Program-made: the position numbers and the translations under genes
Notes under the pieces: model-generated
Told to the model about the DNA's origin: nothing
What the model saw: the letters and a program-made list of their open reading frames with translations, nothing else
The model's database searches: none
Shown here: piece by piece, positions 2,874-47,322 of the stretch
How positions within the stretch are numbered: the first letter of the stretch is position 1
Layout of the letters: each line of letters starts with the position of its first letter
IMG/VR virus record: IMGVR_UViG_2534681762_000009
Span: 1-48,656 of that record
Reading direction: 5' to 3' (one strand)
Origin: a virus
Taxonomy: Duplodnaviria > Heunggongvirae > Uroviricota > Caudoviricetes
Length of the DNA stretch: 48,656 bases

Positions 2874-3894
2874 ACACGCCCTTTGTCGTCAGGTATTCAG
2901 TAATGTATTTGTTCAGTGCTACGGGATCTTTGTGAATGTCGATCGGACGCTCACGGACAAGGCCAAAAATAGTTTGGCGGTCGTAGCGAAGGGCATCAGG
3001 CTGTTTGCGCATTGATGCCGAGATACGCTTCCAGTCTTCGCGGTCGTTGTCGATAACTTCATTTTTTGCCCAGCGATGGATGCTGCCGTCAATGTTTCCG
3101 GCATCCACATCACCAGGCCAGAGAGCGTAGGCCAGTTCGTCATCCAGTGTTTTCCATGTCTGCTTGTATTCGCGATGAATGGCAGCAATGACCGGGCTGA
3201 TTTTTCCTGTTGAATTTTCAGTGTACTGTTGATTGGCTCTGGCGCGGGCGAGATCAACAACAGACGTGTATTTTCCGGTTTCCTTGCGTTCACCTTCGCG
3301 ACGTTTTTTCCAGATGCGCATCTCTGCCTGAATTTCGGGCCATTTAGCACCAGGAATACATTTATGCTTAACCCACCCAATGGCGTGCAACTTAAGCTCC
3401 GGATACATGGCGTTAACTTCTGGCATTTTCATCAACGCTTCAACGATATGTCCGTCGAATGTTGCCATGTCTTCCTGCAACAATTCCTGTGCGCTAATAA
3501 CCATATCAACGGTGATGTTTTCACATGTGTCGAACTTAACCATGACAGCGTTCTGTACTTCAGGGGCCAGCTTGTCAAAAGTGACGTTCATCGGATCGGA
3601 TTCAGTCTCAACCGGGACAAAAGAAGCAGACTCCTCATCCCAGCGGTTTTCCTGCATATATTCAGCATCCCATGAATCGAGGGCAGGGCGGGGTATGCCA
3701 GGTTTATCCTCGCAGACAATAAATTTATAAGCGCAGTCCTGAGCAGCCGGATAATGTTCCAGGAATTGCCAGTGAAATTTTGCTCGAGCACGGCGTTCGT
3801 CGCCAGCTTCAATGGCTGTGGCTACAGCCACAGCGCCTTCTTCCCTTGTTGCCAGTTCGTCAGGAATAGCGGCGCAAATAAAGACTTTACTCAT
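2863..3894 (-). CDS. Conserved prophage protein of unknown function (early-left operon)
   Basis: Long ORF (frame open to 3930); start chosen at Met with GAGG RBS 10 nt upstream (MSKVFICAA…); overlaps downstream exonuclease gene start by 11 nt suggesting translational coupling. Confidence 0.6.
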
Positions 3895-3986
3895 TTGTTT
3901 TAACCTCATGACAGATTTAAGGATGAACAAATCCCTGCCATTGCTGGCATATAAGAATGAAACCGGATATTTATTACGGAACTGTT

Positions 3987-4178
3987 TTAAAGACCTGCCG
4001 GGATTTCGATATTATCCTGGTGAATAACTTTATCGACCGGGTAACAGTTACCGGGAATTTTCTGTTCGGTTGCTGCAGTCATACACTCCTGCATTGTCCT
4101 GTGAACACTGACTGCAATATCAACTGGCTCTCCGGAAACAAGAAAAACTGTCAGAACAAGCACAAATGCTGAATTCAT
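3987..4178 (-). CDS. Small protein with N-terminal signal peptide (YdfD-like position downstream of dicB)
   Basis: 63-aa ORF from internal Met with AAAGGA RBS; hydrophobic N-terminus MNSAFVLVLTVFLVSG; start ATG overlaps dicB stop (ATGA). Confidence 0.5.
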   Translation of the reverse strand: MNSAFVLVLTVFLVSGEPVDIAVSVHRTMQECMTAATEQKIPGNCYPVDKVIHQDNIEIPAGL

Positions 4179-4363: not shown

Positions 4364-4532
4364 TATCGCGTCCTCAACAATGAATTTTGTGATGCAGTGC
4401 CTGGTGCCTCCAGGTGACGTTAACCAGTTAACAATTAACGCCGGATACAGAGAATCCACCCATAACACTGTTTTTGGTTTTAACTGTTCCGCGTGCGCTC
4501 AGCCGCATTCACCACATCACAAAATTCACTTT

Positions 4533-4590
4533 AAAAAGGGCGGCAGAGCAGTCACGGAGTAAAACTGATACCGCCAAACGTCACCAGAAA
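4533..4590 (-). ncRNA. dicF: DicF-like small regulatory RNA (ftsZ-targeting antisense sRNA family)
   Basis: Minus-strand sequence reads TTTCTGGTGACGTTTGGCGGTATCAGTTTTACTCCGTGACTGCTCTGCCGCCCTTTTT, matching the DicF sRNA as I recall it, ending in a GC stem plus U-tract; located between ydfC-like ORF and dicB-like ORF in a ~380-nt non-coding stretch. Confidence 0.6.
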
Positions 4591-4849
4591 ATTGATAACA
4601 GAGGGCGTTGCAGCGGGGTTGTCACTTAAGCGTATGGTCAACCTGACAACCCGGTGTCCTCAACGGGGAAGGAATAACCCCGCCATACTTACCGCCGCGC
4701 CATTTTGCGGGTTGCCACAACCGGAAGCGCACGGTCGAATTAAATTTAACGACACCGTACAGTGAGACGAACTTCGCCGTGCGCTTTCGTGTTGTGTGCC
4801 TGCTTTTAACCACGTCAGGCGAGGTGGTATCCTTAAAATCACCACAGTT

Positions 4850-5425
4850 TTAAGGATTCATTAAGCAATGTCGCAACCACCAATAAATCCGCTTAAGAAC
4901 ATGAAAATTGATTACTGGTATAAAGCGCTTACAGTTGTTGGCGCTGCGTTGTTTGTCTTTAATGGAACGTCTTTTTTTGACAGATATCCCGTTGTTCCAT
5001 TGGGTTTTTTGTCCTCCGGCATCTTTTTTATTGGTTTGGGGGAGTGGATTAATCACCCTCTCAAAGTGAGATTTATTGGCCCTGGAGTTTGGACTCGTGG
5101 ATATAATCGTTCTTCGTGCGCACTCGGTATCATCTTCGACATACTTGGTTGTTTCCTGATTGTTACAGGAGTCGTCAAGTTCTTCTGATGTAAAACCGCA
5201 AATGGGGCACGTAACGGGAATTTTGAAAAGCGTTTCTCCGGGTTCCAGAACAAAATTTTCTGCGGTCTGATTTTGCTTCTCATATTTGTGCTCCGCGTCA
5301 TTGTGAGAGCACATTCTTATTCTGAGTGCCTGTTTAAACTCACTGAAGCTGAGAGCTTCTTCGCCTTCGGCAAGGCCTTCGAAGTATTCTTCGTAAGCCT
5401 TTTCCATGATTGTGTCGAAATCCAT
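4850..5425 (-). CDS. Qin-type early operon protein (YdfB/YdfC-like, possibly fused); contains CPICG zinc-finger-like motif
   Basis: ORF from Met (MDFDTIMEKAYEEYFEG…) with AGGTGA RBS; N-terminal half looks protein-like, C-terminal ~80 aa are basic/low-complexity and are fully overlapped by an antisense membrane-protein ORF, so true 3' end uncertain. Confidence 0.45.
   Translation of the reverse strand: MDFDTIMEKAYEEYFEGLAEGEEALSFSEFKQALRIRMCSHNDAEHKYEKQNQTAENFVLEPGETLFKIPVTCPICGFTSEELDDSCNNQETTKYVEDDTECARRTIISTSPNSRANKSHFERVINPLPQTNKKDAGGQKTQWNNGISVKKRRSIKDKQRSANNCKRFIPVINFHVLKRIYWWLRHCLMNP
4868..5188 (+). CDS. Candidate small inner-membrane protein (3 predicted TM helices) encoded antisense within the early-left operon
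   Basis: 106-aa ORF with three clean hydrophobic helices (ALTVVGAALFVFNG, LGFLSSGIFFIGLGEWI, ALGIIFDILGCFLIVTGVV); AAGGA upstream of ATG; opposite-strand membrane gene in this operon is reminiscent of sieB placement in Rac; may instead be an antisense artefact. Confidence 0.3.
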   Translation: MSQPPINPLKNMKIDYWYKALTVVGAALFVFNGTSFFDRYPVVPLGFLSSGIFFIGLGEWINHPLKVRFIGPGVWTRGYNRSSCALGIIFDILGCFLIVTGVVKFF

Positions 5426-5426
5426 A

Positions 5427-5582
5427 TCACTCACCTGAGTTTCTTTCCAGCCAGCGACGGGCACCATTTTCGGTTTTAAACGTTTTGCTTTTGGTATACG
5501 TCATTGCGGTGAACGTACCGTCCTGGTTGGGGAACACGCCACATACCAGAGATTCGCTGTTGCCAAGATTGATAGTATCCAT
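5427..5582 (-). CDS. YdfA-like small protein (51 aa), first gene of early-left operon
   Basis: 51-aa ORF from Met (MDTINLGNSESLVCGVFPNQDG…) with GAGG RBS; immediately downstream of left operator palindromes. Confidence 0.5.
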   Translation of the reverse strand: MDTINLGNSESLVCGVFPNQDGTFTAMTYTKSKTFKTENGARRWLERNSGE

Positions 5583-5767
5583 GCTGACCTCATTTCCCCT
5601 TAACGCCGGGGTAGCGGAACAAAAACCTGCTGCATAGTTATTAAAGTTGTACCCTGCCGTCATGTTCTTACGCCTCGGGCTGGCTACTTAACCCCTGACC
5701 ACTGCCTGGTAACTCGAAGTATTGCCCTGCATTCTGTGGAGCGGGGTGAGTTGGTATGAAAAGAAGG

Positions 5768-5805
5768 ATACCCATAGGTATTTAAAAAGTAAATACCCAT
5801 GGGTA
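5768..5805. promoter_or_regulatory. Left operator region (OL-like): two palindromes ATACCCATAGGTAT and TACCCATGGGTA
   Basis: Perfect 12-bp palindrome TACCCATGGGTA (5793-5804) and near-palindrome ATACCCATAGGTAT (5768-5781), same half-site family as sites between repressor and cro-like genes. Confidence 0.5.
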
Positions 5806-5847
5806 ACTTTTTGCGGTGTCTTAACTGGTGACTAGTTGTTTGGTGAG

Positions 5848-6267
5848 CTATGATGCGTTTTGTGCTTTCTTTTTACGGATTTCTTCGTAGATCATATTGT
5901 AATACTGTTTTTTCTCTTCAAGAGTTTTTAATAAGTTATCCGCTTCACTTTCTGGCAGTTCGTCTAAGAGATCTAAAAAAATACGTTGTCGTGGCGTTAG
6001 AACCCTTGTTTCATAACTGGAGGCTGTGTTCGTTGATGATGAAACGATACCATCCATCCATCCCCGGGGTAACCCAAAGGACTCTTCGATAATCTCCACC
6101 ATATCATCAGCGATCCGTTTTTTTCCCTTTTTCCCCTCTGGGTACAACATTCTTGATACATAAGAAGGCTCGCGCCCGATCTTTCTGGCCACGTTAACCG
6201 CTTTACCATCGCATTTCTCATCACGAATTTTGATGAGTTGCTGTCGTCTAAATTCATATTTGTCCAT
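5848..6267 (-). CDS. Prophage repressor (HTH; DicA/RacR/CI-like)
   Basis: 139-aa ORF with HTH segment (KAVNVARKIGREPSYVSRM), divergent from cro-like gene, flanked on both sides by related palindromic operators. Confidence 0.75.
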   Translation of the reverse strand: MDKYEFRRQQLIKIRDEKCDGKAVNVARKIGREPSYVSRMLYPEGKKGKKRIADDMVEIIEESFGLPRGWMDGIVSSSTNTASSYETRVLTPRQRIFLDLLDELPESEADNLLKTLEEKKQYYNMIYEEIRKKKAQNAS

Positions 6268-6302
6268 AGGTAAATAATAGATGCGATTACTGCAAGGTAA
6301 AC

Positions 6303-6343
6303 AACCTGTGGGTATTGACTTTTGTTTACCTGTAGGTATTCTT
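6303..6343. promoter_or_regulatory. Right operator/promoter region (OR/PR-like): ACCTGTGGGTAT and TACCTGTAGGTA palindromes overlapping TTGACT -35 and TATTCT -10
   Basis: Inverted repeats TACC-N4-GGTA at 6327-6338 and 6304-6315; TTGACT at 6315-6320 with a -10-like hexamer 16-17 bp downstream, ~25 nt upstream of cro-like start. Confidence 0.5.
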
Positions 6344-6367
6344 TGCTGTGTTTACTAAGGAGTAGCT

Positions 6368-6649
6368 ATGGAAGAATTAAGAATATTTCTCAATTCTCTT
6401 TCGTCAGATGAACAGCGTATGTTTGCATGCGAGTGTGGTACCAGCATCGGTTATCTAAGAAAGGCATTGAGTAAAGGTCAAGTGTTAGGGGCATCGTTAT
6501 GTGTCCTTATTGAGCGAGCCAGTAATGGTGAAGTTACACGTCAGCAACTAAGGCCTTTTGATTGGATGAATATTTGGCCCGAGCTGGAAGATACCAAAAC
6601 GTTAACACAACCACTTTCTAGGAGCTTGATTCATGAAAATCAAGCATGA
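6368..6649 (+). CDS. Cro-like/YdaS-like HTH protein
   Basis: 93-aa ORF, AAGGAG RBS, divergent from repressor; HTH-like segment (CGTSIGYLRKALSKGQ); resembles Rac ydaS position. Confidence 0.65.
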   Translation: MEELRIFLNSLSSDEQRMFACECGTSIGYLRKALSKGQVLGASLCVLIERASNGEVTRQQLRPFDWMNIWPELEDTKTLTQPLSRSLIHENQA

Positions 6650-7058
6650 ACACATCCGCATGGCGATGAATGCCTGGGCGCATCCGGACGGTGAAAAAGT
6701 TCCGGCAGCTGAAATAACCAGGGCTTATTTTGAACTGGGTATGACGTTCCCAGAACTGCATGACGACAGCCATCCGGAAGCCCTGGCTCGCAATACCCAG
6801 AAAATTTTCCGCTGGGTAGAGAAAGACACCCCTGATGCAGTTGAAAAAATTCAGGCGTTGTTACCAGCGATCGAAAAGGCAATGCCACCTTTGCTGGTGG
6901 CCAGAATGCGCAGCCACAGTTCAGCTTATTTTCGGGAGCTGGTGGAGACGCGGGAGCGACTGGTGAGAGACGCTGATGATTTTGTCGCAGTGGCAATCGC
7001 CGGTTTCAATCAGATGAACCGTGGTGGCCCGGCAGGAAATGCTGTGGCAGTGCATTGA
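6633..7058 (+). CDS. CII-like/YdaT-like protein
   Basis: 141-aa ORF overlapping the cro-like gene end by 17 nt; position of cII in the lambdoid map. Confidence 0.5.
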   Translation: MKIKHEHIRMAMNAWAHPDGEKVPAAEITRAYFELGMTFPELHDDSHPEALARNTQKIFRWVEKDTPDAVEKIQALLPAIEKAMPPLLVARMRSHSSAYFRELVETRERLVRDADDFVAVAIAGFNQMNRGGPAGNAVAVH

Positions 7059-10096: not shown

Positions 10097-10307
10097 AAAC
10101 GGTTTGCGGGAAAAGGAGAGTTAAGTAGAATTGCAGCGGGTGCTTGAGGCTATCTGTCTCAGGCATGAACACCAAAAGGCAGATAGAGAAAAGCCCCAGT
10201 TAACATTACGCGTCCGGCAAGACGCTTAACATTAATCTGAGGCCATATCTATGCTCTACACACGTAGGTTAGCCTCTTACGTGCCGAAAGGCAAGGAGAA
10301 GCAGGCT

Positions 10308-10463
10308 ATGAAGCAGCAAAAGGCGATGCTAATCGCCCTGATCGTCATCTGTTTAACCGTCATTGTGACGGCACTGGTAACGAGGAAAGACCTCTGCGAG
10401 GTACGAATCCGAACCGGCCAGACGGAGGTCGCTGTCTTCACAGCTTACGAACCTGAGGAGTAA
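10308..10463 (+). CDS. hok: Hok/Gef family type I toxin (small membrane toxin)
   Basis: MKQQKAMLIALIVICLTVIVTALVTRKDLCEVRIRTGQTEVAVFTAYEPEE: canonical Hok family sequence (TM helix + conserved C-terminal CEV/R…EVAAF-like motif); in-frame upstream extension from 10251 resembles a mok-like leader ORF. Confidence 0.8.
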   Translation: MKQQKAMLIALIVICLTVIVTALVTRKDLCEVRIRTGQTEVAVFTAYEPEE

Positions 10464-13317: not shown

Positions 13318-13692
13318 ATGCTCATAGATTTGGTTTTACCTTACCCGCCGACGGTGAACACTTACTGGCGACGCCGTGGCAGCACATATTTTATCTCGGA
13401 GGAGGGAAAGCGTTATCGCCGGGCTGTGGCGCTTATTGTTCGCCAGCAGCGGCTGAAATTAAGCCTGTCCGGAAGGCTGGCGATAAAGGTGATTGCAGAG
13501 CCACCGGATAAGCGTCGTCGCGACCTGGACAATATTCTGAAAGCACCACTGGATGCGCTGACGCATGCCGGACTTCTCATAGACGACGAGCAGTTTGATG
13601 AAATCAATATTGTGCGCGGTCAGCGCGTTCCTGGGGGGCGGCTGGGCGTGAAGATTTACCCCATAATGCTTGAAGGGCAGGTCAAAAAATGA
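13318..13692 (+). CDS. rusA: RusA-family Holliday junction resolvase
   Basis: 124-aa ORF MLIDLVLPYPPTVNTYW…RRRDLDNILKAPLDALTHAGLLIDDEQ: canonical RusA motifs (PPSVN-like, D-x-DN catalytic acidic residues); AAGAGG RBS. Confidence 0.8.
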   Translation: MLIDLVLPYPPTVNTYWRRRGSTYFISEEGKRYRRAVALIVRQQRLKLSLSGRLAIKVIAEPPDKRRRDLDNILKAPLDALTHAGLLIDDEQFDEINIVRGQRVPGGRLGVKIYPIMLEGQVKK

Positions 13693-14510
13693 AACTGGAA
13701 GATTTACCGAAATACTACTCCCCAAAATCCCCCGGCCTGACTGATGCATCGGCCTCAACGTCGAAAGATGCGCTGAGTATCACTGATGTGATGGCCGCGC
13801 AGGGCATGACACAGAATCGGGCTGAGATGGGGTTTTCTGCGTTCCTTGGGAAAATGGGCATTAGTATGAATGACAGAGAGCGGGCAACAGAATTGCTGAC
13901 AGAATATGCACTCAGTCGGTGTGATCGCGTGGCGGCGTTAAGAAAACTCCCGGCAGAAATAAAACCGGCAGTGATGCGTATTATGGCTTCGTATGCGTTT
14001 GAAGATTATGCCCGCAGCGCGGCGAGCAAAAAACAGTGCTCCTGCTGTCACGGAAAAAAATTTATTGAAAGCGAGGTTTTTACAAACAAGATCCAGTATC
14101 CGGATGGTAAGCCGCCGGTATGGGCAAAGTGTACGAAAGGTGTGTATCCGTCTTACTGGGAAGAATGGAAAAAAGTCAGGGAGGTGGTAAAAGTTGCCTG
14201 TCCGGAGTGTGGCGGAAAGGGTGAGGTTTCCACCGCCTGTAAGGATTGCCGTGGGCGTGGTGTCGCCATTCATCGTGAAGAGTCGGTAAAACGTGGTATG
14301 CCTGTTATCAGAGACTGCCAGCGTTGTGGTGGTCGTGGCTGTGAAAGACTACCATCAACGGAGGCATTTAATGCCATATGCAAAGTGACGAGTGCTATCA
14401 CGCTTGATACGTGGAAAAAATCAGTGAAACGCTTTTACGATACGTTGGTGGTTCGGTTTGACATTGAAGAGGCATGGGCGGAGCGGCAGTTAAAGAGGGT
14501 AACGCGATAG
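13689..14510 (+). CDS. Late-gene antiterminator Q-like protein with CxxC-x-G-x-G zinc-finger repeats
   Basis: 273-aa ORF in the Q position (after rusA, before a short terminated transcript and the lysis/structural genes); repeated CxxCxGxG motifs (CPECGGKGE…CKDCRGRGV…CQRCGGRGC). Confidence 0.55.
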   Translation: MKLEDLPKYYSPKSPGLTDASASTSKDALSITDVMAAQGMTQNRAEMGFSAFLGKMGISMNDRERATELLTEYALSRCDRVAALRKLPAEIKPAVMRIMASYAFEDYARSAASKKQCSCCHGKKFIESEVFTNKIQYPDGKPPVWAKCTKGVYPSYWEEWKKVREVVKVACPECGGKGEVSTACKDCRGRGVAIHREESVKRGMPVIRDCQRCGGRGCERLPSTEAFNAICKVTSAITLDTWKKSVKRFYDTLVVRFDIEEAWAERQLKRVTR

Positions 14511-14591
14511 TGTTGTTGATTTTTCCCGAATCTGTGGTAAATTTGCTCTAACGATGGGCGTTTTATGCCTGACGTTAGAAGATTTTTTACA

Positions 14592-14615
14592 CCCCGCCGC
14601 CTGGCGGGTTTTTTA
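14592..14615 (+). terminator. Rho-independent terminator downstream of Q (tR'-like)
   Basis: CCCGCC-gcct-GGCGGG followed by TTTTTTAT, ~80 nt after Q stop. Confidence 0.5.
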
Positions 14616-14736: not shown

Positions 14737-14934
14737 ATGCTAAAACAGCAGGATATGACAGAAACCGCCAGAGTGGTGTTTAATGAATTAAGCGTTACCG
14801 AACCGGCGACAGTCGGGGAGATAGCGCAGAATACTTACCTTTCACGCGAACGCTGCCAGTTAATACTGACCCAGCTGGTTATGGCGGATCTGGCAGACTA
14901 TCAGTTCGGTTGTTACAGACGCCTTCCGCAGTGA
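14737..14934 (+). CDS. Small hypothetical protein (possible winged-helix)
   Basis: 65-aa ORF from ATG (MLKQQDMTETARVVFNELSV…) with GGGAAAAAG RBS-like; stop lies within a terminator hairpin. Confidence 0.4.
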   Translation: MLKQQDMTETARVVFNELSVTEPATVGEIAQNTYLSRERCQLILTQLVMADLADYQFGCYRRLPQ

Positions 14935-14948
14935 AGGCTTTTTTATTT
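14921..14948 (+). terminator. Rho-independent terminator
   Basis: GCCTTC-cgcagt-GAAGGC followed by TTTTTTATTT. Confidence 0.5.
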
Positions 14949-15084: not shown

Positions 15085-16134
15085 ATGCTTAATACTGTAA
15101 AAATATCCAGTTGTGAGTTAATCAACGCCGACTGCCTGGAATTTATCCGGTCGTTACCCGAAAATTCTGTTGACCTGATAGTCACGGACCCGCCGTACTT
15201 TAAAGTGAAGCCTGAGGGCTGGGATAACCAGTGGAAGGGCGACGATGATTACCTGAAGTGGCTGGACCAGTGTCTGGCGCAGTTCTGGCGGGTGCTGAAA
15301 CCTGCCGGAAGTCTTTACCTGTTCTGTGGTCATCGCCTGGCATCTGATATCGAAATCATGATGCGTGAACGCTTCAGTGTGCTGAACCATATTATCTGGG
15401 CGAAGCCGTCCGGACGCTGGAACGGATGCAACAAGGAAAGCCTGCGGGCGTATTTCCCCGCCACAGAGCGCATTCTGTTCGCGGAACATTATCAGGGGCC
15501 GTATCGTCCGAAAGATGCCGGGTATGCGGCGAAGGGCAGTGCACTGAAACAGCATGTGATGGCCCCGCTGATTTCTTACTTTCGTGATGCGCGCGCGGCC
15601 CTGGGGATAACGGCAAAACAGATTGCAGATGCCACAGGAAAGAAAAACATGGTGTCGCACTGGTTCAGTGCCAGTCAGTGGCAGCTACCGAACGAAAGCG
15701 ATTATCTGAAATTACAGTCGCTGTTTGCCCGGGTGGCAGAAGAGAAACATCAGCGCGGTGAACTGGAAAAGCCCCACCACCAGCTGGTGGATACGTATAC
15801 GTCACTGAACCGGCAGTATGTGGAGCTGCAGAGTGAATATAAGCATCTGCGGCGGTATTTTGGTGTGACGGCGCAGGTGCCGTACACGGATGTGTGGACA
15901 CATAAACCGGTGCAGTTCTATCCCGGGAAACATCCGTGCGAAAAACCGGCAGAAATGCTGCAGCAGATAATCAGCGCAAGCAGTCGTCCGGGTGACCTGG
16001 TTGCAGATTTTTTTATGGGCTCAGGTTCAACGGTAAAAGCGGCACTGGCGCTCGGGCGTCGTGCGATTGGCGTTGAGCTGGAGACCGGACGTTTTGAGCA
16101 GACAGTCAGGGAAGTTCAGGATTTAATCGTTTGA
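15085..16134 (+). CDS. Orphan DNA methyltransferase (N6-adenine/N4-cytosine class, DPPY motif)
   Basis: 349-aa ORF with catalytic DPPY (VTDPPYF) and C-terminal SAM-binding (FFMGSGST) motifs; no adjacent restriction endonuclease gene. Confidence 0.8.
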   Translation: MLNTVKISSCELINADCLEFIRSLPENSVDLIVTDPPYFKVKPEGWDNQWKGDDDYLKWLDQCLAQFWRVLKPAGSLYLFCGHRLASDIEIMMRERFSVLNHIIWAKPSGRWNGCNKESLRAYFPATERILFAEHYQGPYRPKDAGYAAKGSALKQHVMAPLISYFRDARAALGITAKQIADATGKKNMVSHWFSASQWQLPNESDYLKLQSLFARVAEEKHQRGELEKPHHQLVDTYTSLNRQYVELQSEYKHLRRYFGVTAQVPYTDVWTHKPVQFYPGKHPCEKPAEMLQQIISASSRPGDLVADFFMGSGSTVKAALALGRRAIGVELETGRFEQTVREVQDLIV

Positions 16135-16183
16135 AATGGATGAGATTGCAGAATTAATTACGCACCATTATTATTCTGCTCCC

Positions 16184-16259
16184 GGCCCTTTAGCTCAGTG
16201 GTGAGAGCGAGCGACTCATAATCGCCAGGTCGCTGGTTCAAATCCAGCAAGGGCCACCA
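16184..16259 (+). tRNA. tRNA with CAU anticodon (Ile2/lysidine-type, ileZ-like; could also be read as Met)
   Basis: Folded by hand: acceptor GGCCCTT/AAGGGCC, D-arm GCTC…GAGC, anticodon loop CTCATAA, T-arm GGTCGCTGGTTCAAATCCAGC, 3' ACCA; close to E. coli ileX-type sequence. Confidence 0.8.
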
Positions 16260-16268
16260 TATCACATA

Positions 16269-16345
16269 CCACCATTAGCTCATCGGGATAGAGCGCCAGC
16301 CTTCGAAGCTGGTTGCGCGGGGTTCGAGTTCTCGATGGCGGTCCA
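16269..16345 (+). tRNA. tRNA-Arg (anticodon UCG)
   Basis: Folded by hand: acceptor CCACCAT/ATGGCGG (one A-C mismatch), D-arm GCTC…GAGC, anticodon stem CCAGC/GCTGG with loop CTTCGAA, T-loop TTCGAGT, 3' TCCA. Confidence 0.7.
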
Positions 16346-16359
16346 TTTATCGGTATTCT

Positions 16360-16405
16360 GCGTTGTTAGCTCAGCCGGACAGAGCAATTGCCTTCTAAGC
16401 AGCTG
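16360..16405 (+). pseudogene. Truncated tRNA-Arg(UCU)-like remnant (5' half only)
   Basis: GCGTTGT-TA-GCTCAGCCGGACAGAGC-A-ATTGC-CTTCTAA-GCAGC matches tRNA 5' half and anticodon arm, but no canonical T-arm or complementary acceptor 3' strand downstream. Confidence 0.35.
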
Positions 16406-16769
16406 TGGTTGCACTCCTGTTGTTTCTGGTGGTGATGGTGGACTTCAGCAGCCGGATAATGTCGGTGCTGTCTGATGGTGTTTTGGTGGCGGGTGTGTGG
16501 TTGTTGCTTTCCCGTTGCTGAAAAAGAAAGCATCAGGCGATTAGCAGGGTATCAGTTACACGTTGAAATTTTTAAATACCTCACAATTCCACAGCTTGAT
16601 GATTGTCTGGCTGCCGGAGAATTTGTTAAAAATTACATCGCATGGTGAATCCCCCTGTGCGGAGGGGTAATCAGCGAGTAGGTATATGGGATAATCGCGG
16701 ATTCAGGTGCTGGTACTGAATTCACCGGGAGGCACCCGGCACCATGCAATGGCACATAGCGCCACTCTC

Positions 16770-16800
16770 CAGCCCCTCTCCGGAGGGGCTGTTTATATTG
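16770..16800 (+). terminator. Rho-independent terminator
   Basis: CAGCCCCTC-tccg-GAGGGGCTG followed by TTTATATTGATTTTG. Confidence 0.5.
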
Positions 16801-16825
16801 ATTTTGTCAGATGTGAGTAAACTCC

Positions 16826-17161
16826 TTATGGACTTTGTTGTTTTAGCCCATAAGGACATATTTGCAGAGTGCAACGGTTATTAAAGCATTCATTCAATAC
16901 GTTATCTGTATTTGTAGGGCATTCCTGGCTGTTTTTGATTAAATTCCAGAATGTTTTATTGAATGGTACTACGTTGTAAATGGTTACAGGTAGCACTTTG
17001 TTATTGAGCATGATGCCTGTGTGAGTCAGTGTAAATATACTTTCAGGAGGTAAGAAAGCATCCGATTGATACCAGATTATTAATTTTATTTTACTCCATA
17101 TGACTGAAAAAGATATTCCGCATGATGGCTGGATAACTGTATCAATCACAATCCACTTCAT
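16826..17161 (-). CDS. AT-rich hypothetical protein at the stx-equivalent locus (antisense to flanking genes)
   Basis: 111-aa ORF with AAGGAAA RBS 5 nt upstream of ATG; strongly AT-rich relative to flanks; C-terminal Cys cluster ([23 protein letters not shown]); no recognisable family from sequence alone. Confidence 0.45.
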
Positions 17162-17421
17162 TTAGTTTCCTTGTTTATGCCTTGCTGGTGATGTTCTGAA
17201 AAGTATAAATGATATTTTTGATTGTAAACCATAGAGCAGAATTATTTTTCTGATGTTGTTTATTGTTTATTTAAATGCAGGGTGGTTTATATCTCGTCTT
17301 GTAGTTTATCCATGCATATCTGCTTGATGATGAGGTTTTTATTTAAGGTATGGTTTTGTGTTTTTTCTGTATTACATGTCAGGTATTTTAAAGAATCATT
17401 TTTCAGATGGTGGAAAGAACC

Positions 17422-19278
17422 ATGGCATTTAAACACTATGATGTTGTCAGGGCGGCGTCGCCGTCAGATCTTGCGGAAAAGCTGACACATAAACTGAAAG
17501 AGGGCTGGCAGCCGTTTGGTAGTCCGGTGGCCATAACCCCTTATACCCTGATGCAGGCGATTGCAGCAGAAGGTGATGTGGTCGTCAGTGGTGCAACTGA
17601 GCCGGAGTGGTACTACGTCATCGTACTGGCCGGGCAATCCAATGCCATGGCTTACGGTGAAGGGCTTCCGCTTCCGGATTCATACGATGCGCCCCATCCG
17701 CGCATTAAGCAACTGGCCCGTCGTAACACAGTGACTCCCGGTGGTGAAGTATGCGTATTTAACGACATCATTCCTGCTGACCATTGTCTGCATGATGTTC
17801 AGGATATGAGTACGATTAATCATCCCCGGGCTGACCTGAGCAAAGGGCAGTACGGCTGTGTCGGACAGGGCTTACATATTGCCAAAAAACTGCTTCCGTA
17901 TATCCCTAATAACGCGGGGATCCTGCTGGTACCATGCTGTCGTGGTGGTTCGGCATTCACCCAGGGCACGGAGGGGACATTCAGCGAGTCCACGGGGGCC
18001 AGTCAGGATTCGGCTCGCTGGGGAGTGGGTAAGCCGTTATATCAGGATCTGCTTTTCCGCACGAAGGCAGCATTGCAGAAAAATCCGAAAAACGTTTTGC
18101 TGGCGATATGCTGGATGCAGGGGGAATTCGATATGACGAATGCCAGTTACGCCCAGCAGCCAGCAGCATTTCTTGCAATGGTACAGCAGTTCCGTGCTGA
18201 CCTTGCCGGGCTGGCGGCGCAGTGTCACGGTGGAAGTCCGGCATCAGTCCCCTGGATTTGTGGCGACACGACATACGCGTGGAAACAAGAACACGGTACG
18301 CAATATGAAGTGGTATATGGTGCATATAAAGGTAAAGAATCCCAGCAGATTTATTTTGTTCCCTTTATGACCGATGGTAGCGGAGTTAATACACCGACAA
18401 ACAACCCGTCAGAAGATCCTGATATTGCCGGGTCTGGTTATTACGGTTCGGCATCCCGAACGAACAAAAACTGGGTATCATCAAATCGCCCGACGCATTT
18501 CAGCTCATGGGCGCGTCGTGGCATTATTCCCGATCGTATGGCAACTGCTATTCTGAACGTAGCCGGTCGCACCTTAGCCTTCATTAGTGGTAAGGCACCG
18601 GAAATCAAACCCTCGCCCGGCGGCGACACTCCATCGGGGCCGTCTGATGGTGACACATCCGTTCGTACAGTCTCCCTGCTGCCGACAGCCGGAGAGGCTG
18701 CTGCGCAGGGCTGGACCATCACCGGCGGCAGTGTTGCGCTGGAAGATGGTGTGTTTAAGGTTACCAAGCAGAGCAATAAAACTTGGTCCCTGATGCATCC
18801 GGTGGATGACGCAGTCTCCCTGCTGACACGGGGTGGCAGACTGAGCTGTAAGTTTCGACTGTCAGGCGCACTGACCAACAACCAGTTCGGTCTGGGAATT
18901 TATCTGTATACCGATGTAGCGTTACCTGACGTCGTGGCGATGACCGGGACTGGTAACCCGTTCCTGATGTCGTTCTTCACCCAGACCACAGACGGCAAAC
19001 TGAATCTGATGCATCACAGGAAAGCAGGAAACACAAAGTTGGGCGAGTTCGGGAATTACAGTAACGACTGGCAGACGCTGGAGCTGGTGTTCACCGCCGG
19101 CAGTGCCACGGTTACTCCGAAACTGAATGGAGTGGCTGGCCCGGCATTCCAGGTCATAAAAGACAGTCTGACACTGGGGCTGAATGCGCTGACGCTGACG
19201 GATATTACCAAAAATGCAGCGTATGGCGTTGAGATAGAAAGTCTGGTGCTGGAGATAAATGCACCAGCATCATCATAA
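17422..19278 (+). CDS. NanS-p-like prophage esterase (DUF1737 + sialate O-acetylesterase-like domain)
   Basis: 618-aa ORF; N-terminal MAFKHYDVVRAASPSDLAEKL… and large conserved protein at the position occupied by nanS-p downstream of stx in Stx phages; assignment from recollection, not searched. Confidence 0.65.
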   Translation: MAFKHYDVVRAASPSDLAEKLTHKLKEGWQPFGSPVAITPYTLMQAIAAEGDVVVSGATEPEWYYVIVLAGQSNAMAYGEGLPLPDSYDAPHPRIKQLARRNTVTPGGEVCVFNDIIPADHCLHDVQDMSTINHPRADLSKGQYGCVGQGLHIAKKLLPYIPNNAGILLVPCCRGGSAFTQGTEGTFSESTGASQDSARWGVGKPLYQDLLFRTKAALQKNPKNVLLAICWMQGEFDMTNASYAQQPAAFLAMVQQFRADLAGLAAQCHGGSPASVPWICGDTTYAWKQEHGTQYEVVYGAYKGKESQQIYFVPFMTDGSGVNTPTNNPSEDPDIAGSGYYGSASRTNKNWVSSNRPTHFSSWARRGIIPDRMATAILNVAGRTLAFISGKAPEIKPSPGGDTPSGPSDGDTSVRTVSLLPTAGEAAAQGWTITGGSVALEDGVFKVTKQSNKTWSLMHPVDDAVSLLTRGGRLSCKFRLSGALTNNQFGLGIYLYTDVALPDVVAMTGTGNPFLMSFFTQTTDGKLNLMHHRKAGNTKLGEFGNYSNDWQTLELVFTAGSATVTPKLNGVAGPAFQVIKDSLTLGLNALTLTDITKNAAYGVEIESLVLEINAPASS

Positions 19279-20552: not shown

Positions 20553-21007
20553 GCAGAGTCGCAGCGATTATTTATACTCTGGTTATCTGCACCATCGTCT
20601 GCCTGTCATGGGCTGTTAATCATTACCGCGATAACGCCATTACCTACAAAGCCCAGCGCGACAAAAATGCCAGAGAACTGAAGCTGGCGAACGTGGTAAT
20701 TACTGACATGCAGATGCGTCAGCGTGATGTAGCAGAACTCGACGCCAGATACACAAAGGAGCTTGCTGATGCTAACGCGACTATCGAAAGTCTTCGTGCT
20801 GATGTTTCTGCTGGGCGTAAGCGCCTGCAAGTCGCCGCCACCTGTGCAAAGTCAACGACCGGAGCCAGCAGCATGGGCGATGGAGAAAGCCCAAGACTTA
20901 CAGCAGATGCTGAACTCAATTATTACCGTCTCCGAAGTGGAATCGACAAGATAACCGCTCAGGTCAACTACCTGCAGGAGTACATCAGGACGCAGTGCTT
21001 AAAATAA
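20549..21007 (+). CDS. Rz: Rz-like i-spanin
   Basis: GTG start overlapping R stop (GTGA); N-terminal TM ([20 protein letters not shown]) and coiled-coil-like periplasmic domain. Confidence 0.7.
20763..20954 (+). CDS. Rz1: Rz1-like o-spanin (lipoprotein) embedded in Rz in +1 frame
   Basis: ORF wholly inside Rz; lipobox LLGVSAC followed by proline-rich segment ([13 protein letters not shown]). Confidence 0.65.
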
Positions 21008-21045
21008 TTTTAATTTCACTGAAATTTAATACGTGACTTTCAGGA

Positions 21046-21075
21046 AAATGCCTCGCAGATGCGGGGCATTTTTGT
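21046..21075 (+). terminator. Rho-independent terminator after lysis cassette
   Basis: AAATGCCTCGC-agat-GCGGGGCATTT followed by TTGT. Confidence 0.55.
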
Positions 21076-21423
21076 ACAGGTATTTCACCGCGCACCGCAG
21101 CGCACTCAACCACGTCGAACCAAACCCTTTGGAATGAGCCTTTGAGTAGTCAGTTAGTGCTGGTGAGCCTTGACGGGCTGATCTCCTATGCAGCAAAGGT
21201 TCATCTCAAAGTAAGACGAACGCTATGACAAACCAAGATTCTATAGACCTATCTGATCTTCGTGGAATGGTCAGTTTTCCAGACAAAAGGTAATCACCAT
21301 AGTCGTATGGCTATGAATCTTGTTGCTGCAGATAAGCATTTTGTGATTGAAGTGGTCAAATCTCTCAAATGCAGTAAAATGCAGTGCGCTATAATTCAAT
21401 AACGGAGGGAGTAAGGAGAAGTC

Positions 21424-22044
21424 ATGAAAGATCAAGATGTTAGGTTCGCGGTGCATCATAAGCTTTTGAAAGAATCGCATTTAGATCCAGACTGCCTTGT
21501 GGTCGATGAATTTTCCATATCCCTTGGCGCCAGTAGAGCAGACATTGCTGTAATAAATGGTGTTATACACGGGTACGAGCTCAAAAGTGAATATGACTCT
21601 TTGGAGCGTTTGCCTCTTCAAATCAAGCATTATTCTTCTGTAATGGACAAGGTTACTCTTGTCGTAGCTGAGAAACACCTTGAGGGAGCATTAAAGTTAA
21701 TCCCAGGTTGGTGGGGCGTTAAAACGGTTTCTGTTGGGCCAAAAGGCGCCATTCTTATAAAGCACATGCGTGGAGAAAAGCTTAATCGAAACCATGACAC
21801 ATTGATGCTCGCTCAATTGCTTTGGAAAGATGAATGTATCGACGTACTTGAACGATGGGGCTATTCCAAAGGAATCAAAAGCAAGCCCCGATTTGAGTTA
21901 TGGAATATTATTGCGGAAAATATTCCAATAGCGAATCTCAGGCCTGAAGTCAGAACAGCCTTAAAGAAACGCGTAGGCTGGAAAGTTAAGGCTTGGCAGG
22001 CTGAGTCTGCGCCAACCAATAAAGCTGTCTCACGACTAACGTAA
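21424..22044 (+). CDS. Hypothetical protein with PD-(D/E)xK nuclease-like motif (AT-rich accessory gene)
   Basis: 206-aa ORF; very strong RBS (GGAGGGAGTAAGGAGAAGTC-ATG) and consensus TATAAT 28 nt upstream; motif RADIAVINGVIHGYELKS (D … E-x-K after a β-strand-like segment); AT-rich vs flanks. Confidence 0.6.
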   Translation: MKDQDVRFAVHHKLLKESHLDPDCLVVDEFSISLGASRADIAVINGVIHGYELKSEYDSLERLPLQIKHYSSVMDKVTLVVAEKHLEGALKLIPGWWGVKTVSVGPKGAILIKHMRGEKLNRNHDTLMLAQLLWKDECIDVLERWGYSKGIKSKPRFELWNIIAENIPIANLRPEVRTALKKRVGWKVKAWQAESAPTNKAVSRLT

Positions 22045-23053
22045 TATGGTGCGTATGTGCAACTTTACGCCATTCTTTAGAGCCGCCAGATTTGTTAGCG
22101 CCTAATGATCTTTGGTAAATGTAATCATCCCCCCAACTAAATTTGGAGCCAAAGACTTGATACTCTGGCGAACTAACAAGGGTAGTACATAAGTTTTTAG
22201 TTTGGCCCCATCCATTTCCTTTAACTGCGGTACCTTTTACAAAGATCCATGAGGTATCGTTCGAATATCTCACTGAGACATACTGAGACATGAAGCGTGG
22301 GTCTACGCTCGTAATGGTAGAGCTAGCGGTGGGATAATCACTAAAACTTGGCGTTCTTCCATTGCTAAAATTCTGTACTACGTACATCCAAAGATCGTAT
22401 TCATGGCGCGGAATATGATGAACTTGATGTTGCGGTATCCCTGCCTGTGATGCCGGGTATGCGGTTGAAGATAAAATCAAGTTTCTCCACGGAGCTTGGC
22501 CTGATAATGTGTTGACCATGCTTAATGCTTGTTGTTTTAAACTATCAGTTGCGTTTTGAATATCTCCAAAATCAATGATTACATCAATTAAACTAGGATG
22601 AATATTTAAGTGGTTAACCAGACTTGTGAATTGGTGCCATGTCTGGGGGGTGATAGACATAGCGAGCCCATTGATTAAGTTGCGTTGAACAGCATGTATA
22701 TAGTTTGTTGAATATGCGGGAGAAACAACAGGGATAATTTCCTTACCATTTACTCTAGCATCTTGGATACACATATCTAGAGGATGATGGCGGCTCGAAC
22801 CATGTTTATCTAAATATTTAACATCCAGCAAAACAGGACGATTGGCTTTCCAGGATGCCGCAAGGTTAATACCGAAGTCAGATAAGTAAGAACTCAAACT
22901 CTTCTTGTAGCATTCGTTTTCATAATCCCAGTCTATGTCTGGAATGGTAATGATCGGAGTAAAACCAGAGAGCGTAGTTTGATCTAAAAGCATCAGAGAT
23001 TCATATTCAGCAGGCTTCCATTTCAGCTGTGGATAATATTGATGTTGACTCAT
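21986..23053 (-). CDS. Hypothetical protein (355 aa), convergent partner of the nuclease-like gene
   Basis: AAGGAG RBS 5 nt upstream of ATG; 3' end overlaps the plus-strand partner by 59 nt; AT-rich; no family assignable from sequence alone. Confidence 0.6.
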   Translation of the reverse strand: MSQHQYYPQLKWKPAEYESLMLLDQTTLSGFTPIITIPDIDWDYENECYKKSLSSYLSDFGINLAASWKANRPVLLDVKYLDKHGSSRHHPLDMCIQDARVNGKEIIPVVSPAYSTNYIHAVQRNLINGLAMSITPQTWHQFTSLVNHLNIHPSLIDVIIDFGDIQNATDSLKQQALSMVNTLSGQAPWRNLILSSTAYPASQAGIPQHQVHHIPRHEYDLWMYVVQNFSNGRTPSFSDYPTASSTITSVDPRFMSQYVSVRYSNDTSWIFVKGTAVKGNGWGQTKNLCTTLVSSPEYQVFGSKFSWGDDYIYQRSLGANKSGGSKEWRKVAHTHHITLVVRQLYWLAQTQPAKP

Positions 23054-23276
23054 TAAAACTCCTTAAAATCTTTACTTATCCTAAGTATAGTGTTATGGCG
23101 TAACGCCAATTGTTTTTATACACTTGAAAACATTGGGAAAAGTTGAGCTATATCTAAATTTACAAAATTGGATGTTATAGAAATCGAGGTTTCAACTAGG
23201 CATGGAACTGCAAAATTTTTAATGCCTGCACGCGAAAGTCGTTGGCGGGTCCTTTCCGGTGATCCAGATCGTTACG

Positions 23277-23288
23277 GGGCGGCGACCT
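23277..23288. other. cos: cosN cohesive-end site (GGGCGGCGACCT) with cosB region downstream to Nu1
   Basis: Exact lambda cohesive end sequence GGGCGGCGACCT followed by CGCG…TTTTC…CTATTTATGA, as at the lambda left end, ~215 bp upstream of Nu1 start. Confidence 0.8.
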
Positions 23289-23504
23289 CGCGCGTTTTCA
23301 CTATTTATGAGATTTTTTGAGGGGGTGGTTGTTGTTTAATTGTTTGGTATATCTAATTGATAAGTAAGGTGAAAATAAAATAAATACAACAACCTTACGA
23401 TGTGTTTTGATGTCGCCAATGCGAAAAATGTCAATGATATCAAATGGTTTTGCAAAAACACATGGTTGTTGTTTCGCTTTTTATCGATGACTTATGGAGA
23501 GGAG

Positions 23505-24011
23505 ATGGCCTTTTTATTGAATAAAAGTGATATGGCCTCCTCCATCGGTATCTCTGTTCAGGCATTTGATAAATGGGGCGTTCCTCCTGTTGAACGTCGG
23601 GGGAGGGAAGTTTTATATGACGTTAAAACTGTACTGGAGATAGATCGCGAGCGGCGACAACACAATCAGAGAACACCTGATGACGGGGGAGAACTGGAGG
23701 AAAGGCTGCTTCGGGCCAGAGCTGAACTGACAGAAGAACAGGCTGTAGCTCAAAAACTTAAAAATCAGGTAACCGAAGGTAAGCTCATCGATTCAGACTT
23801 CTGCGTTTTCGCCCTCAGCAAACTGGCGATGGCATTGTCCAGTACGCTTGATTCCATTCCGTTATCCATGCAGCGACAGTTCCCGGATTTAACGCCACGT
23901 CATATTGACCATCTGAAAACCCTTATTGCAAAGGGCGCAAATCAGTGTGCGCGGGCAGGGGATAAATTACCGGATTTGCTGGATGAATATATCAGAGCAA
24001 CAACTGAATAA
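23505..24011 (+). CDS. nu1: Terminase small subunit (Nu1-like)
   Basis: Strong similarity by eye to lambda Nu1 (…FCVFALSKLAMALSSTLDSIPLSMQRQFPDLTPRHIDHLK…); GGAGAGGAG RBS; 3' end overlaps terminase large subunit start. Confidence 0.8.
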   Translation: MAFLLNKSDMASSIGISVQAFDKWGVPPVERRGREVLYDVKTVLEIDRERRQHNQRTPDDGGELEERLLRARAELTEEQAVAQKLKNQVTEGKLIDSDFCVFALSKLAMALSSTLDSIPLSMQRQFPDLTPRHIDHLKTLIAKGANQCARAGDKLPDLLDEYIRATTE

Positions 24012-46738: not shown

Positions 46739-47322
46739 TGGCATTCAGAATGAGTGAACAAGCACGGACCATAAAAATTTATAATCTGCTGGCCGGAACT
46801 AATGAATTTATTGGTGAAGGTGACGCATATATTCCGCCTCATACAGGTCTGCCAGCAAACAGTACCGATATTGCACCGCCAGATATTCCGGCTGGCTTTG
46901 TGGCTGTTTTCAACAGTGATGAGGCATCGTGGCATCTCGTTGAAGATCATCGGGGTAAAACGGTTTATGACGTAGCTTCCGGCGACGCGTTATTTATTTC
47001 TGAACTCGGCTTATTACCGGAAAATGTTACCTGGTTATCGCCGGAAGGGGAGTTTCAGAAGTGGAACGGCACAACCTGGGTGAAAGATGCAGAAGCAGAA
47101 AAACTGTTCCGGATCCGGGAGGCGGAAGAAACAAAAAACAACCTGATGCAGGTAGCCAGTGAGCATATTGCGCCGCTTCAGGATGCTGCAGATCTGGAAA
47201 TTGCAACGGAGGAAGAAACCTCATTGCTGGAAGCCTGGAAAAAGTATCGGGTGTTGCTGAACCGTGTTGATACATCAACTGCACCTGATATTGAGTGGCC
47301 TACGAACCCTGTCAGGGAGTAA
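46738..47322 (+). CDS. tfa: Tail fibre assembly protein (Tfa-like)
   Basis: 194-aa ORF ATGA-like coupled to stf end; typical Tfa N-terminus ([17 protein letters not shown]…). Confidence 0.85.

Follow-up and report, generated by a model that had tools for sequence, protein, structure and literature searches.

The late region of this prophage raises the question of what stands where Stx-converting phages carry their toxin genes, and of how it came to be there. The window, by which we mean the whole stretch of 48,656 nucleotides analysed here, is a lambdoid prophage with an integrase gene at 1-1131 on the minus strand, a P21-type holin, lysozyme and lambda-like morphogenesis genes, and the prophage of the CFT073 potB island matches it at 93-97% identity across most modules. 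A preliminary description of this DNA had recognised a Q, tRNA, esterase and lysis architecture; the order Q, methylase, tRNAs, esterase, holin and lysozyme is indeed present (Table 1), and the proposed positional equivalence to the stx region of Stx phages is supported. Our analysis indicates that the interval is the late-operon cargo region of a lambdoid prophage that lacks stx and is a relative of the potB prophage of CFT073, and in this explanation, taken jointly with the parts set out below, we have high confidence. The iraL gene, STnc100, the tRNA cluster and nanS-p have all been described previously, in the literature or in curated libraries, and the locus is in this sense already explained; the value for the window is a corrected annotation, in which the cut third tRNA is recognised as a scar that is both inherited and widespread.

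Table 1. Features of the late cargo region, with window coordinates, strand and supporting evidence.
Feature	Position	Strand	Evidence
Late antiterminator Q, opening the late operon, which extends across the locus	13689..14510	+	Pfam Antiterm PF03589, E 1e-49; PGAP 'antitermination protein' in relative loci L001, L002, L004
Phage DNA adenine methyltransferase	15085..16134	+	Pfam N6_N4_Mtase, E 2e-44
tRNA with CAT anticodon, ileZ-type of Stx phages	16184..16259	+	ARAGORN Met; Rfam tRNA, 72.5 bits; PGAP tRNA-Ile in relative loci L001, L004
tRNA-Arg (TCG), argN-type	16269..16345	+	ARAGORN; Rfam tRNA, 44.9 bits
Third tRNA remnant, argO-type Arg-UCU, first 42 nt, 3' half deleted	16360..16401	+	Alignment to intact argO
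tciB remnant (DUF3927 small membrane protein gene)	16402..16521	+	blastn to JLK-2012; Pfam; PGAP
STnc100-family phage sRNA gene	16610..16800	+	Rfam RF02076, 132 bits (gathering 47), E 4e-30
Intrinsic terminator of STnc100	16770..16800	+	Terminator scan; last helix of the Rfam STnc100 model
AT-rich iraL cassette, bounded precisely by the terminator of STnc100 and the start codon of nanS-p	16801..17420		Composition; homology breakpoints
iraL, 111-aa RssB anti-adaptor of the IraM family	16826..17161	-	Identity to CFT073 IraL; NCBIfam; PDB
iraL 5' UTR (33 nt), TSS 17194, candidate -10 TATACT 17207-17202, candidate -35 TTTACA 17228-17223	17162..17228	-	5'-RACE match; alignment
nanS-p-type sialate O-acetylesterase, intact (DUF1737 + SASA + DUF6645)	17422..19278	+	Pfam; PGAP 'SASA family carbohydrate esterase' in relative loci L001, L002

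Several further observations concern the prophage outside this interval. Terminator-like hairpins with long T runs lie just 3' of Q on the plus strand, at 14544-14608 and 14921-14938; these hairpins, among them CCCGCCGCCTGGCGGG followed by TTTTTT at 14593-14608, are candidates for the tR' terminator of the late promoter. Two ORFs between the lysis genes and the terminase (21424-23053) are candidate anti-phage defence cargo: the ORF at 21424-22044 on the plus strand matches PADLOC 'cll' (E 4e-31), and that at 21986-23053 on the minus strand matches Pfam Beta_protein and PADLOC PD-Lambda-2_C (E 4e-32). A megablast comparison with the CFT073 relative gave no match for 20772-23715. Additional Rfam matches at gathering level are DicF (4538-4589, minus strand), sok (10138-10313, plus strand, adjoining a hok-type region) and IS009 (47081-47279, plus strand).

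The third tRNA and its joint with tciB

The tRNA cluster had been described as ending in a truncated third gene, and this is confirmed: ARAGORN and a permissive Rfam scan (E<=1) both see two tRNAs only, and the third is present as a 42-nt stump. It keeps the 5' strand of the acceptor stem, the D arm, the UCU anticodon stem-loop and three of the five nucleotides of the 3' anticodon stem, and is identical to argO of the Stx2a phage Stx2_14040 and near-identical to argO of CFT073 up to ...CTTCTAAGCA, beyond which the sequences diverge. With nucleotides 1-42 only, it is without the complete cloverleaf, T arm and acceptor 3' strand of a functional tRNA-Arg(UCU). The missing 3' half has no copy within the window, and integration of an element into the third tRNA, which would predict such a displaced half, was rejected.

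Exactly at the tRNA breakpoint begins homology to the tciB gene of phage JLK-2012, nucleotide 22 of tciB corresponding to window position 16402, and this homology runs on through STnc100 with a blastn identity of 89%. The junction has no evident microhomology, and tciA is not present in the window. What is left of tciB lacks its first 21 nt, that is seven codons including the native start, and a 1-nt deletion frameshifts its 3' end, leaving an ORF of 38 codons that begins with GTG (16405-16521). The fusion could in principle encode a functional 38-aa DUF3927 membrane peptide, expressed via tRNA-operon or late transcription, as the ORF is open, scores above the Pfam cutoff (DUF3927, 42.6 bits), has a counterpart accepted by PGAP as a DUF3927 protein in relatives (WP_000226111.1), and lies at a junction kept at a level of at least 95% in 325 genomes. 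We consider this very unlikely. The match spans only positions 11-39 of the 53 in the profile, the GTG has no Shine-Dalgarno sequence, the frameshift replaces the conserved C-terminus, so that a full-length TciB/DUF3927 protein with its native start and conserved C-terminus is not encoded in the window, and PGAP labels the equivalent tciB 'frameshifted' in the closest relative (locus L001). That the junction is conserved, for its part, is accounted for by a recent common ancestor of these prophages.

The argO-tciB joint is most likely an inert scar of recombination or deletion. Precisely this joint is found in single copy in each of 325 of 5426 complete E. coli genomes, and four records of sequenced phages (vB_EcoS-640R1 and relatives) share it, which makes it an inherited feature of one prophage lineage; at least 80% of the interval 16100-17500 is found in 1234 of the same 5426 genomes. 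Since the stump is fused to tciB, the visible scar derives from cargo of the tciAB type and not from stx. In CFT073, the intact third tRNA is set off from the tciB remnant by DNA of which about 470 bp (locus L004, 32554-33024) have no match in the window or in the compared phage loci, JLK-2012 included; for the argO-tciB spacer of that strain, roughly 540 bp, no match was found in the window or in relative loci L002, L005, L006 and L007, and JLK-2012 matches 28 nt at its 3' edge.

The sRNA gene, the AT-rich cassette and its product

The tciB remnant is followed by a gene of the STnc100 sRNA family, whose Rfam match is full-length (model positions 1-206). It was at the end of this gene that the preliminary description had placed a strong plus-strand terminator. 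Hairpin and T-tract are there, with a 9-bp stem at 16770-16791 that contains seven G-C pairs, the T-tract TTTATATTGATTTTG after it, and a folding energy of -21.6 kcal/mol in a 60-nt context, but they form the 3' end of STnc100 according to Rfam and not a free-standing element. On the minus strand no T run follows the hairpin, which is thus not a canonical terminator for iraL, and a bidirectional terminator serving both strands was rejected in that sense. The STnc100 family is found in the same position in the Stx2a, Stx2c, phi296, CFT073 and JKHS016 loci, directly 3' of stx2B in the Stx2a and Stx2c phages and 5' of nanS-p in the stx-negative relatives. In Stx2 phages it overlaps the Hfq-binding sRNA EcOnc27/sRNA103, which has been detected experimentally according to work cited in PMC12711010, and the literature describes STnc100 as related to PasD. 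Most close relatives of the window have STnc100 in duplicate, as a tandem pair spaced at about 470 bp (3511-3704 and 3980-4168 in locus L002; 3466-3659 and 3935-4123 in locus L007); the window and strain AF58 have a single copy, which is consistent with recombination between tandem copies.

About 1 kb of AT-rich DNA had been reported to follow the tRNAs. The AT-richness holds, with a GC content of 32.9% over 16801-17420 where the neighbouring genes have about 53% and the window as a whole 51%, but the extent shrinks to about 620 bp, 16402-16800 being of normal GC content and holding the tciB remnant and the sRNA gene. Homology to the ira-less phages Stx2_14040, JLK-2012 and phi296 breaks off at 16756-16790 and sets in again at 17421-17429, where nanS-p starts (17422). 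The suggestion that this is foreign DNA is supported, in the form of a moron-like cassette with one real gene.

The single minus-strand ORF of the cassette, previously left without an assignable product, is iraL: all 111 of its 111 residues are identical to IraL of CFT073 (c1429, WP_000871291.1), a protein that PGAP names "anti-adapter protein IraM" in the CFT073 potB prophage. The ORF is real, with AAGGAAA at 17172-17166, 4 nt before the ATG, as had been noticed, and its doubtful points, conservation and transcription, are answered by its conservation within the IraM family and by its transcription in CFT073. NCBIfam NF007393 covers residues 1-110 with 162 bits against a cutoff of 121, and the crystallised IraM in PDB 8TWD aligns without gaps over residues 1-78 (E 9e-32). 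A Pfam-A scan of the ORF gave no match at E<=0.01; database relatives carry a precomputed PF11183. The amino acid identity to IraM of K-12 is 61.7% (the published value for IraL and IraM is 58.9%; PMC4045071). In a search of 5.8 billion proteins, no more than 20 clusters were returned, and Escherichia is the only source named among them. Within E. coli, iraL is present at an identity of at least 95% in about 1400 records, and K-12-type iraM (about 71% nucleotide identity) in most others.

The C-terminal Cys cluster pointed out earlier consists of C81, C92, C97 and C102; in 16 of 16 representatives of the IraM family, down to 53% identity, neither these four residues nor the 'ECP' and 'ICPYG' motifs vary. 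The Cys-bearing tail corresponds to iraL codons 81-111, window 16826-16921. For its crystal structure, IraM was shortened by this C-terminal tail, which was characterised as flexible and less conserved (PMC10844676), and an AlphaFold2 model built on the 16-sequence family alignment (mean pLDDT 51, tail below 40) is too poor to inform on the four-Cys tail. Among the 14 residues through which IraM contacts RssB in the crystal structure of their complex (PMC10844676), 10 are identical in IraL and the changes are T13S, L75I, H63N and I64V, a comparison that is only indicative because IraL has been reported to contact RssB differently from IraM (PMC4045071).

Promoter, expression and proposed function of iraL

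The expression signals of iraL are closely conserved with those of CFT073. The 5' end of the CFT073 iraL mRNA was mapped by 5'-RACE as ACATCACCAGCAAGGCATAAACAAGGAAAC (PMC4045071), and this sequence is found verbatim in the window at 17194-17165 on the minus strand. In the 139 nt upstream of the iraL ATG, 136 positions are identical to CFT073 and the candidate -35 and -10 hexamers are unchanged; the three differences lie just 3' of the -35 hexamer, at -1 and in the UTR. Our assignment of these hexamers, made from the sequence, is tentative, since the best pair of hexamers has a spacer of 15 nt. A PhoP-box-like repeat upstream of iraL was noticed by eye.

In CFT073, a fragment from -100 to +33 around the iraL TSS complements the deletion (PMC4045071), iraL is active in log phase in the absence of stress (PMC4045071), its transcript (c1429) is detected and increases by 1.6 log2 at 37 °C (PMC12890032), and its expression is up in a fur mutant (PMC7157518). 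IraL raises the level and the stability of RpoS in exponential phase and binds RssB (Hryckowian et al., 2014; PMC4045071). By analogy, iraL in a lysogen of the present prophage would be transcribed from a sigma-70 promoter of its own, which does not depend on the phage late promoter and reads in the antisense direction to it; the protein would bind the adaptor RssB and prevent the handover of RpoS to ClpXP, and RpoS would thereby be stabilised even in exponential growth. That the IraL of the window binds RssB and stabilises RpoS is predicted from its complete identity to the CFT073 protein and from the near-identical promoter.

The opposite has also to be weighed, namely that iraL does not affect the host, being cargo that is decaying or kept silent, whether through H-NS acting on AT-rich DNA or through convergent transcription. 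A GC content of 33% is typical of the islands targeted by H-NS, the rise of the CFT073 gene at 37 °C resembles that of many H-NS-silenced genes, and three substitutions in the promoter and UTR set the window apart from CFT073. Such silence is nonetheless improbable in our view, given that the product is unchanged relative to a functional protein, that the gene is so widely kept in E. coli at 95% identity or more, that the hexamers and the TSS are intact, and that in CFT073 the gene is active in unstressed log-phase cells (PMC4045071). We favour an active iraL that serves lysogenic conversion from a slot of its own, flanked by STnc100 and nanS-p, and not as a substitute for stx. Both the Q-dependent late transcript and STnc100 run towards iraL, and a second, weaker reading of this convergent arrangement is that antisense transcription may turn iraL off when the prophage is induced.

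Cargo slots, Stx2c phages and the place of stx

To place iraL with respect to stx, the window was compared with the loci of Stx2_14040 (Stx2a), an O157 Stx2c prophage, phi296, JLK-2012, CFT073, JKHS016 and vB_EcoS-640R1. The comparison yields one order, tRNAs, slot A, STnc100, slot B, nanS-p, conserved in six other loci. Slot A contains stx2AB, tciAB, a remnant or nothing, and slot B contains either a minus-strand gene of the IraM family or non-coding DNA of about 170-230 bp. In the window, the stxAB/tciAB position is taken by the 3' part of tciB, and the iraL cassette fills slot B exactly.

There is no stx in the window, as had been stated from the start: tblastn with Stx2A and Stx2B gives chance matches only (E>0.5), stxA and stxB are missing from between the tRNAs and nanS-p, where they would mark an Stx-converting phage, and the alignment to Stx2_14040 skips positions 5302-6712 of that phage locus (L005). 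The preliminary description saw in this the loss of stxAB and of the 3' half of the third tRNA from an ancestral Stx phage, with the toxin cargo replaced by AT-rich foreign DNA. The identity of 94% to the Stx2a phage Stx2_14040 in the methylase-tRNA block, from 14593 up to 16401, with stx2AB missing beyond, fits such a history, as does the presence of STnc100, which follows stx2B in Stx phages. We nevertheless regard it as highly improbable, because the tRNA stump is joined to tciB and not to stx, with no stx remnant, and because the AT-rich cassette lies 3' of STnc100, in a slot other than that of stx. The stx-equivalent slot holds no remnant other than that of tciB, and nothing indicates that this lineage ever carried stx. 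In CFT073, iraL stands beside an intact third tRNA, which separates truncation of the tRNA and acquisition of iraL into two events. The AT-rich spacer could also have been ancestral non-coding sequence; it is common to stx-negative relatives, as that would require, but it is coding.

A cassette homologous to that of the window coexists with stx2c in Stx2c phages, so that toxin and ira genes are not alternatives and a replacement of one by the other is unsupported. In the Stx2c prophage of O157:H7 strain 7.1_Anguil (locus L008), stx2cB (4437-4706) is followed by STnc100 (4781-4992), an ira gene on the minus strand (5003-5326) and nanS-p (from 5570 onward), and the STnc100-ira-nanS block is colinear with 16581-17477 of the window (68%). 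The protein, WP_001303568.1, has 107 aa and shares 74.8% amino acid identity with IraL and 65.4% with K-12 IraM. Genes of this type form a third clade of the IraM family, located directly after stx2cB and STnc100 in Stx2c phages (2851, 1717, Stx2c_*) and present also in some Stx2a phages. Of 5426 complete E. coli genomes, 236 have such a gene, and most of these are O157:H7. In the literature searched, we found no paper that names both IraM and Stx2c.

It is possible, though we put it forward only tentatively, that STnc100-ira-nanS is a module for lysogenic conversion which is of old standing and conserved in late regions of the stx type, in which case the Stx2c paralogue would also be an RssB anti-adaptor. 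If this were so, carriage of an Stx2c phage would be linked to raised RpoS, which might offer an explanation for the EHEC strains that have high log-phase RpoS and lack iraL, a point left open by Hryckowian et al. (2014; PMC4045071). The slot map itself places RpoS-stabilising ira genes and Shiga toxin genes in adjacent and compatible positions, and some Stx2c phages deliver both.

Compared with known systems, the region shares with the late cargo slot of Stx phages (tRNAs, stxAB, nanS-p) both the order and the flanking modules, and differs in having no stx. The stx-negative phage JLK-2012 (tRNAs, tciA-tciB, yjhS) has the same order and flanks as well, whereas the window is without tciA, its tciB is truncated and frameshifted, and its third tRNA is cut. 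The STnc100 of Stx2 phages has in common with that of the window the full-length match to the model and the position 5' of nanS-p in the late operon, but the copies in Stx phages follow stx2B and score about 159 bits, whereas the window copy follows the tciB remnant and scores 132. The ira gene of the Stx2c phages 2851 and 1717 occupies the slot between STnc100 and nanS-p in the orientation of the window iraL, the difference being the stx2cB gene upstream. K-12 IraM (YcgW; PDB 8TWD) belongs to the same family, NF007393, and shares the four C-terminal Cys residues, but its gene lies next to e14/icdC. The flanks of K-12 iraM have no homology to the phage slot outside the coding region, STnc100 is not found at that locus, and the region upstream of iraL shares no homology with the K-12 iraM promoter; the regulation described in the literature is different too, with K-12 iraM induced by a lack of Mg2+ and iraL active in log phase (PMC10844676, PMC4045071). 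Another close parallel is the CFT073 potB prophage, where the neighbours are those of the window (tRNAs, tciB remnant, STnc100, iraL, nanS-p and holin). It differs in retaining an intact third tRNA followed by about 560 bp of extra DNA, in having an IS200 in the place of the methylase, and in its truncated nanS-p, which in the window is intact.
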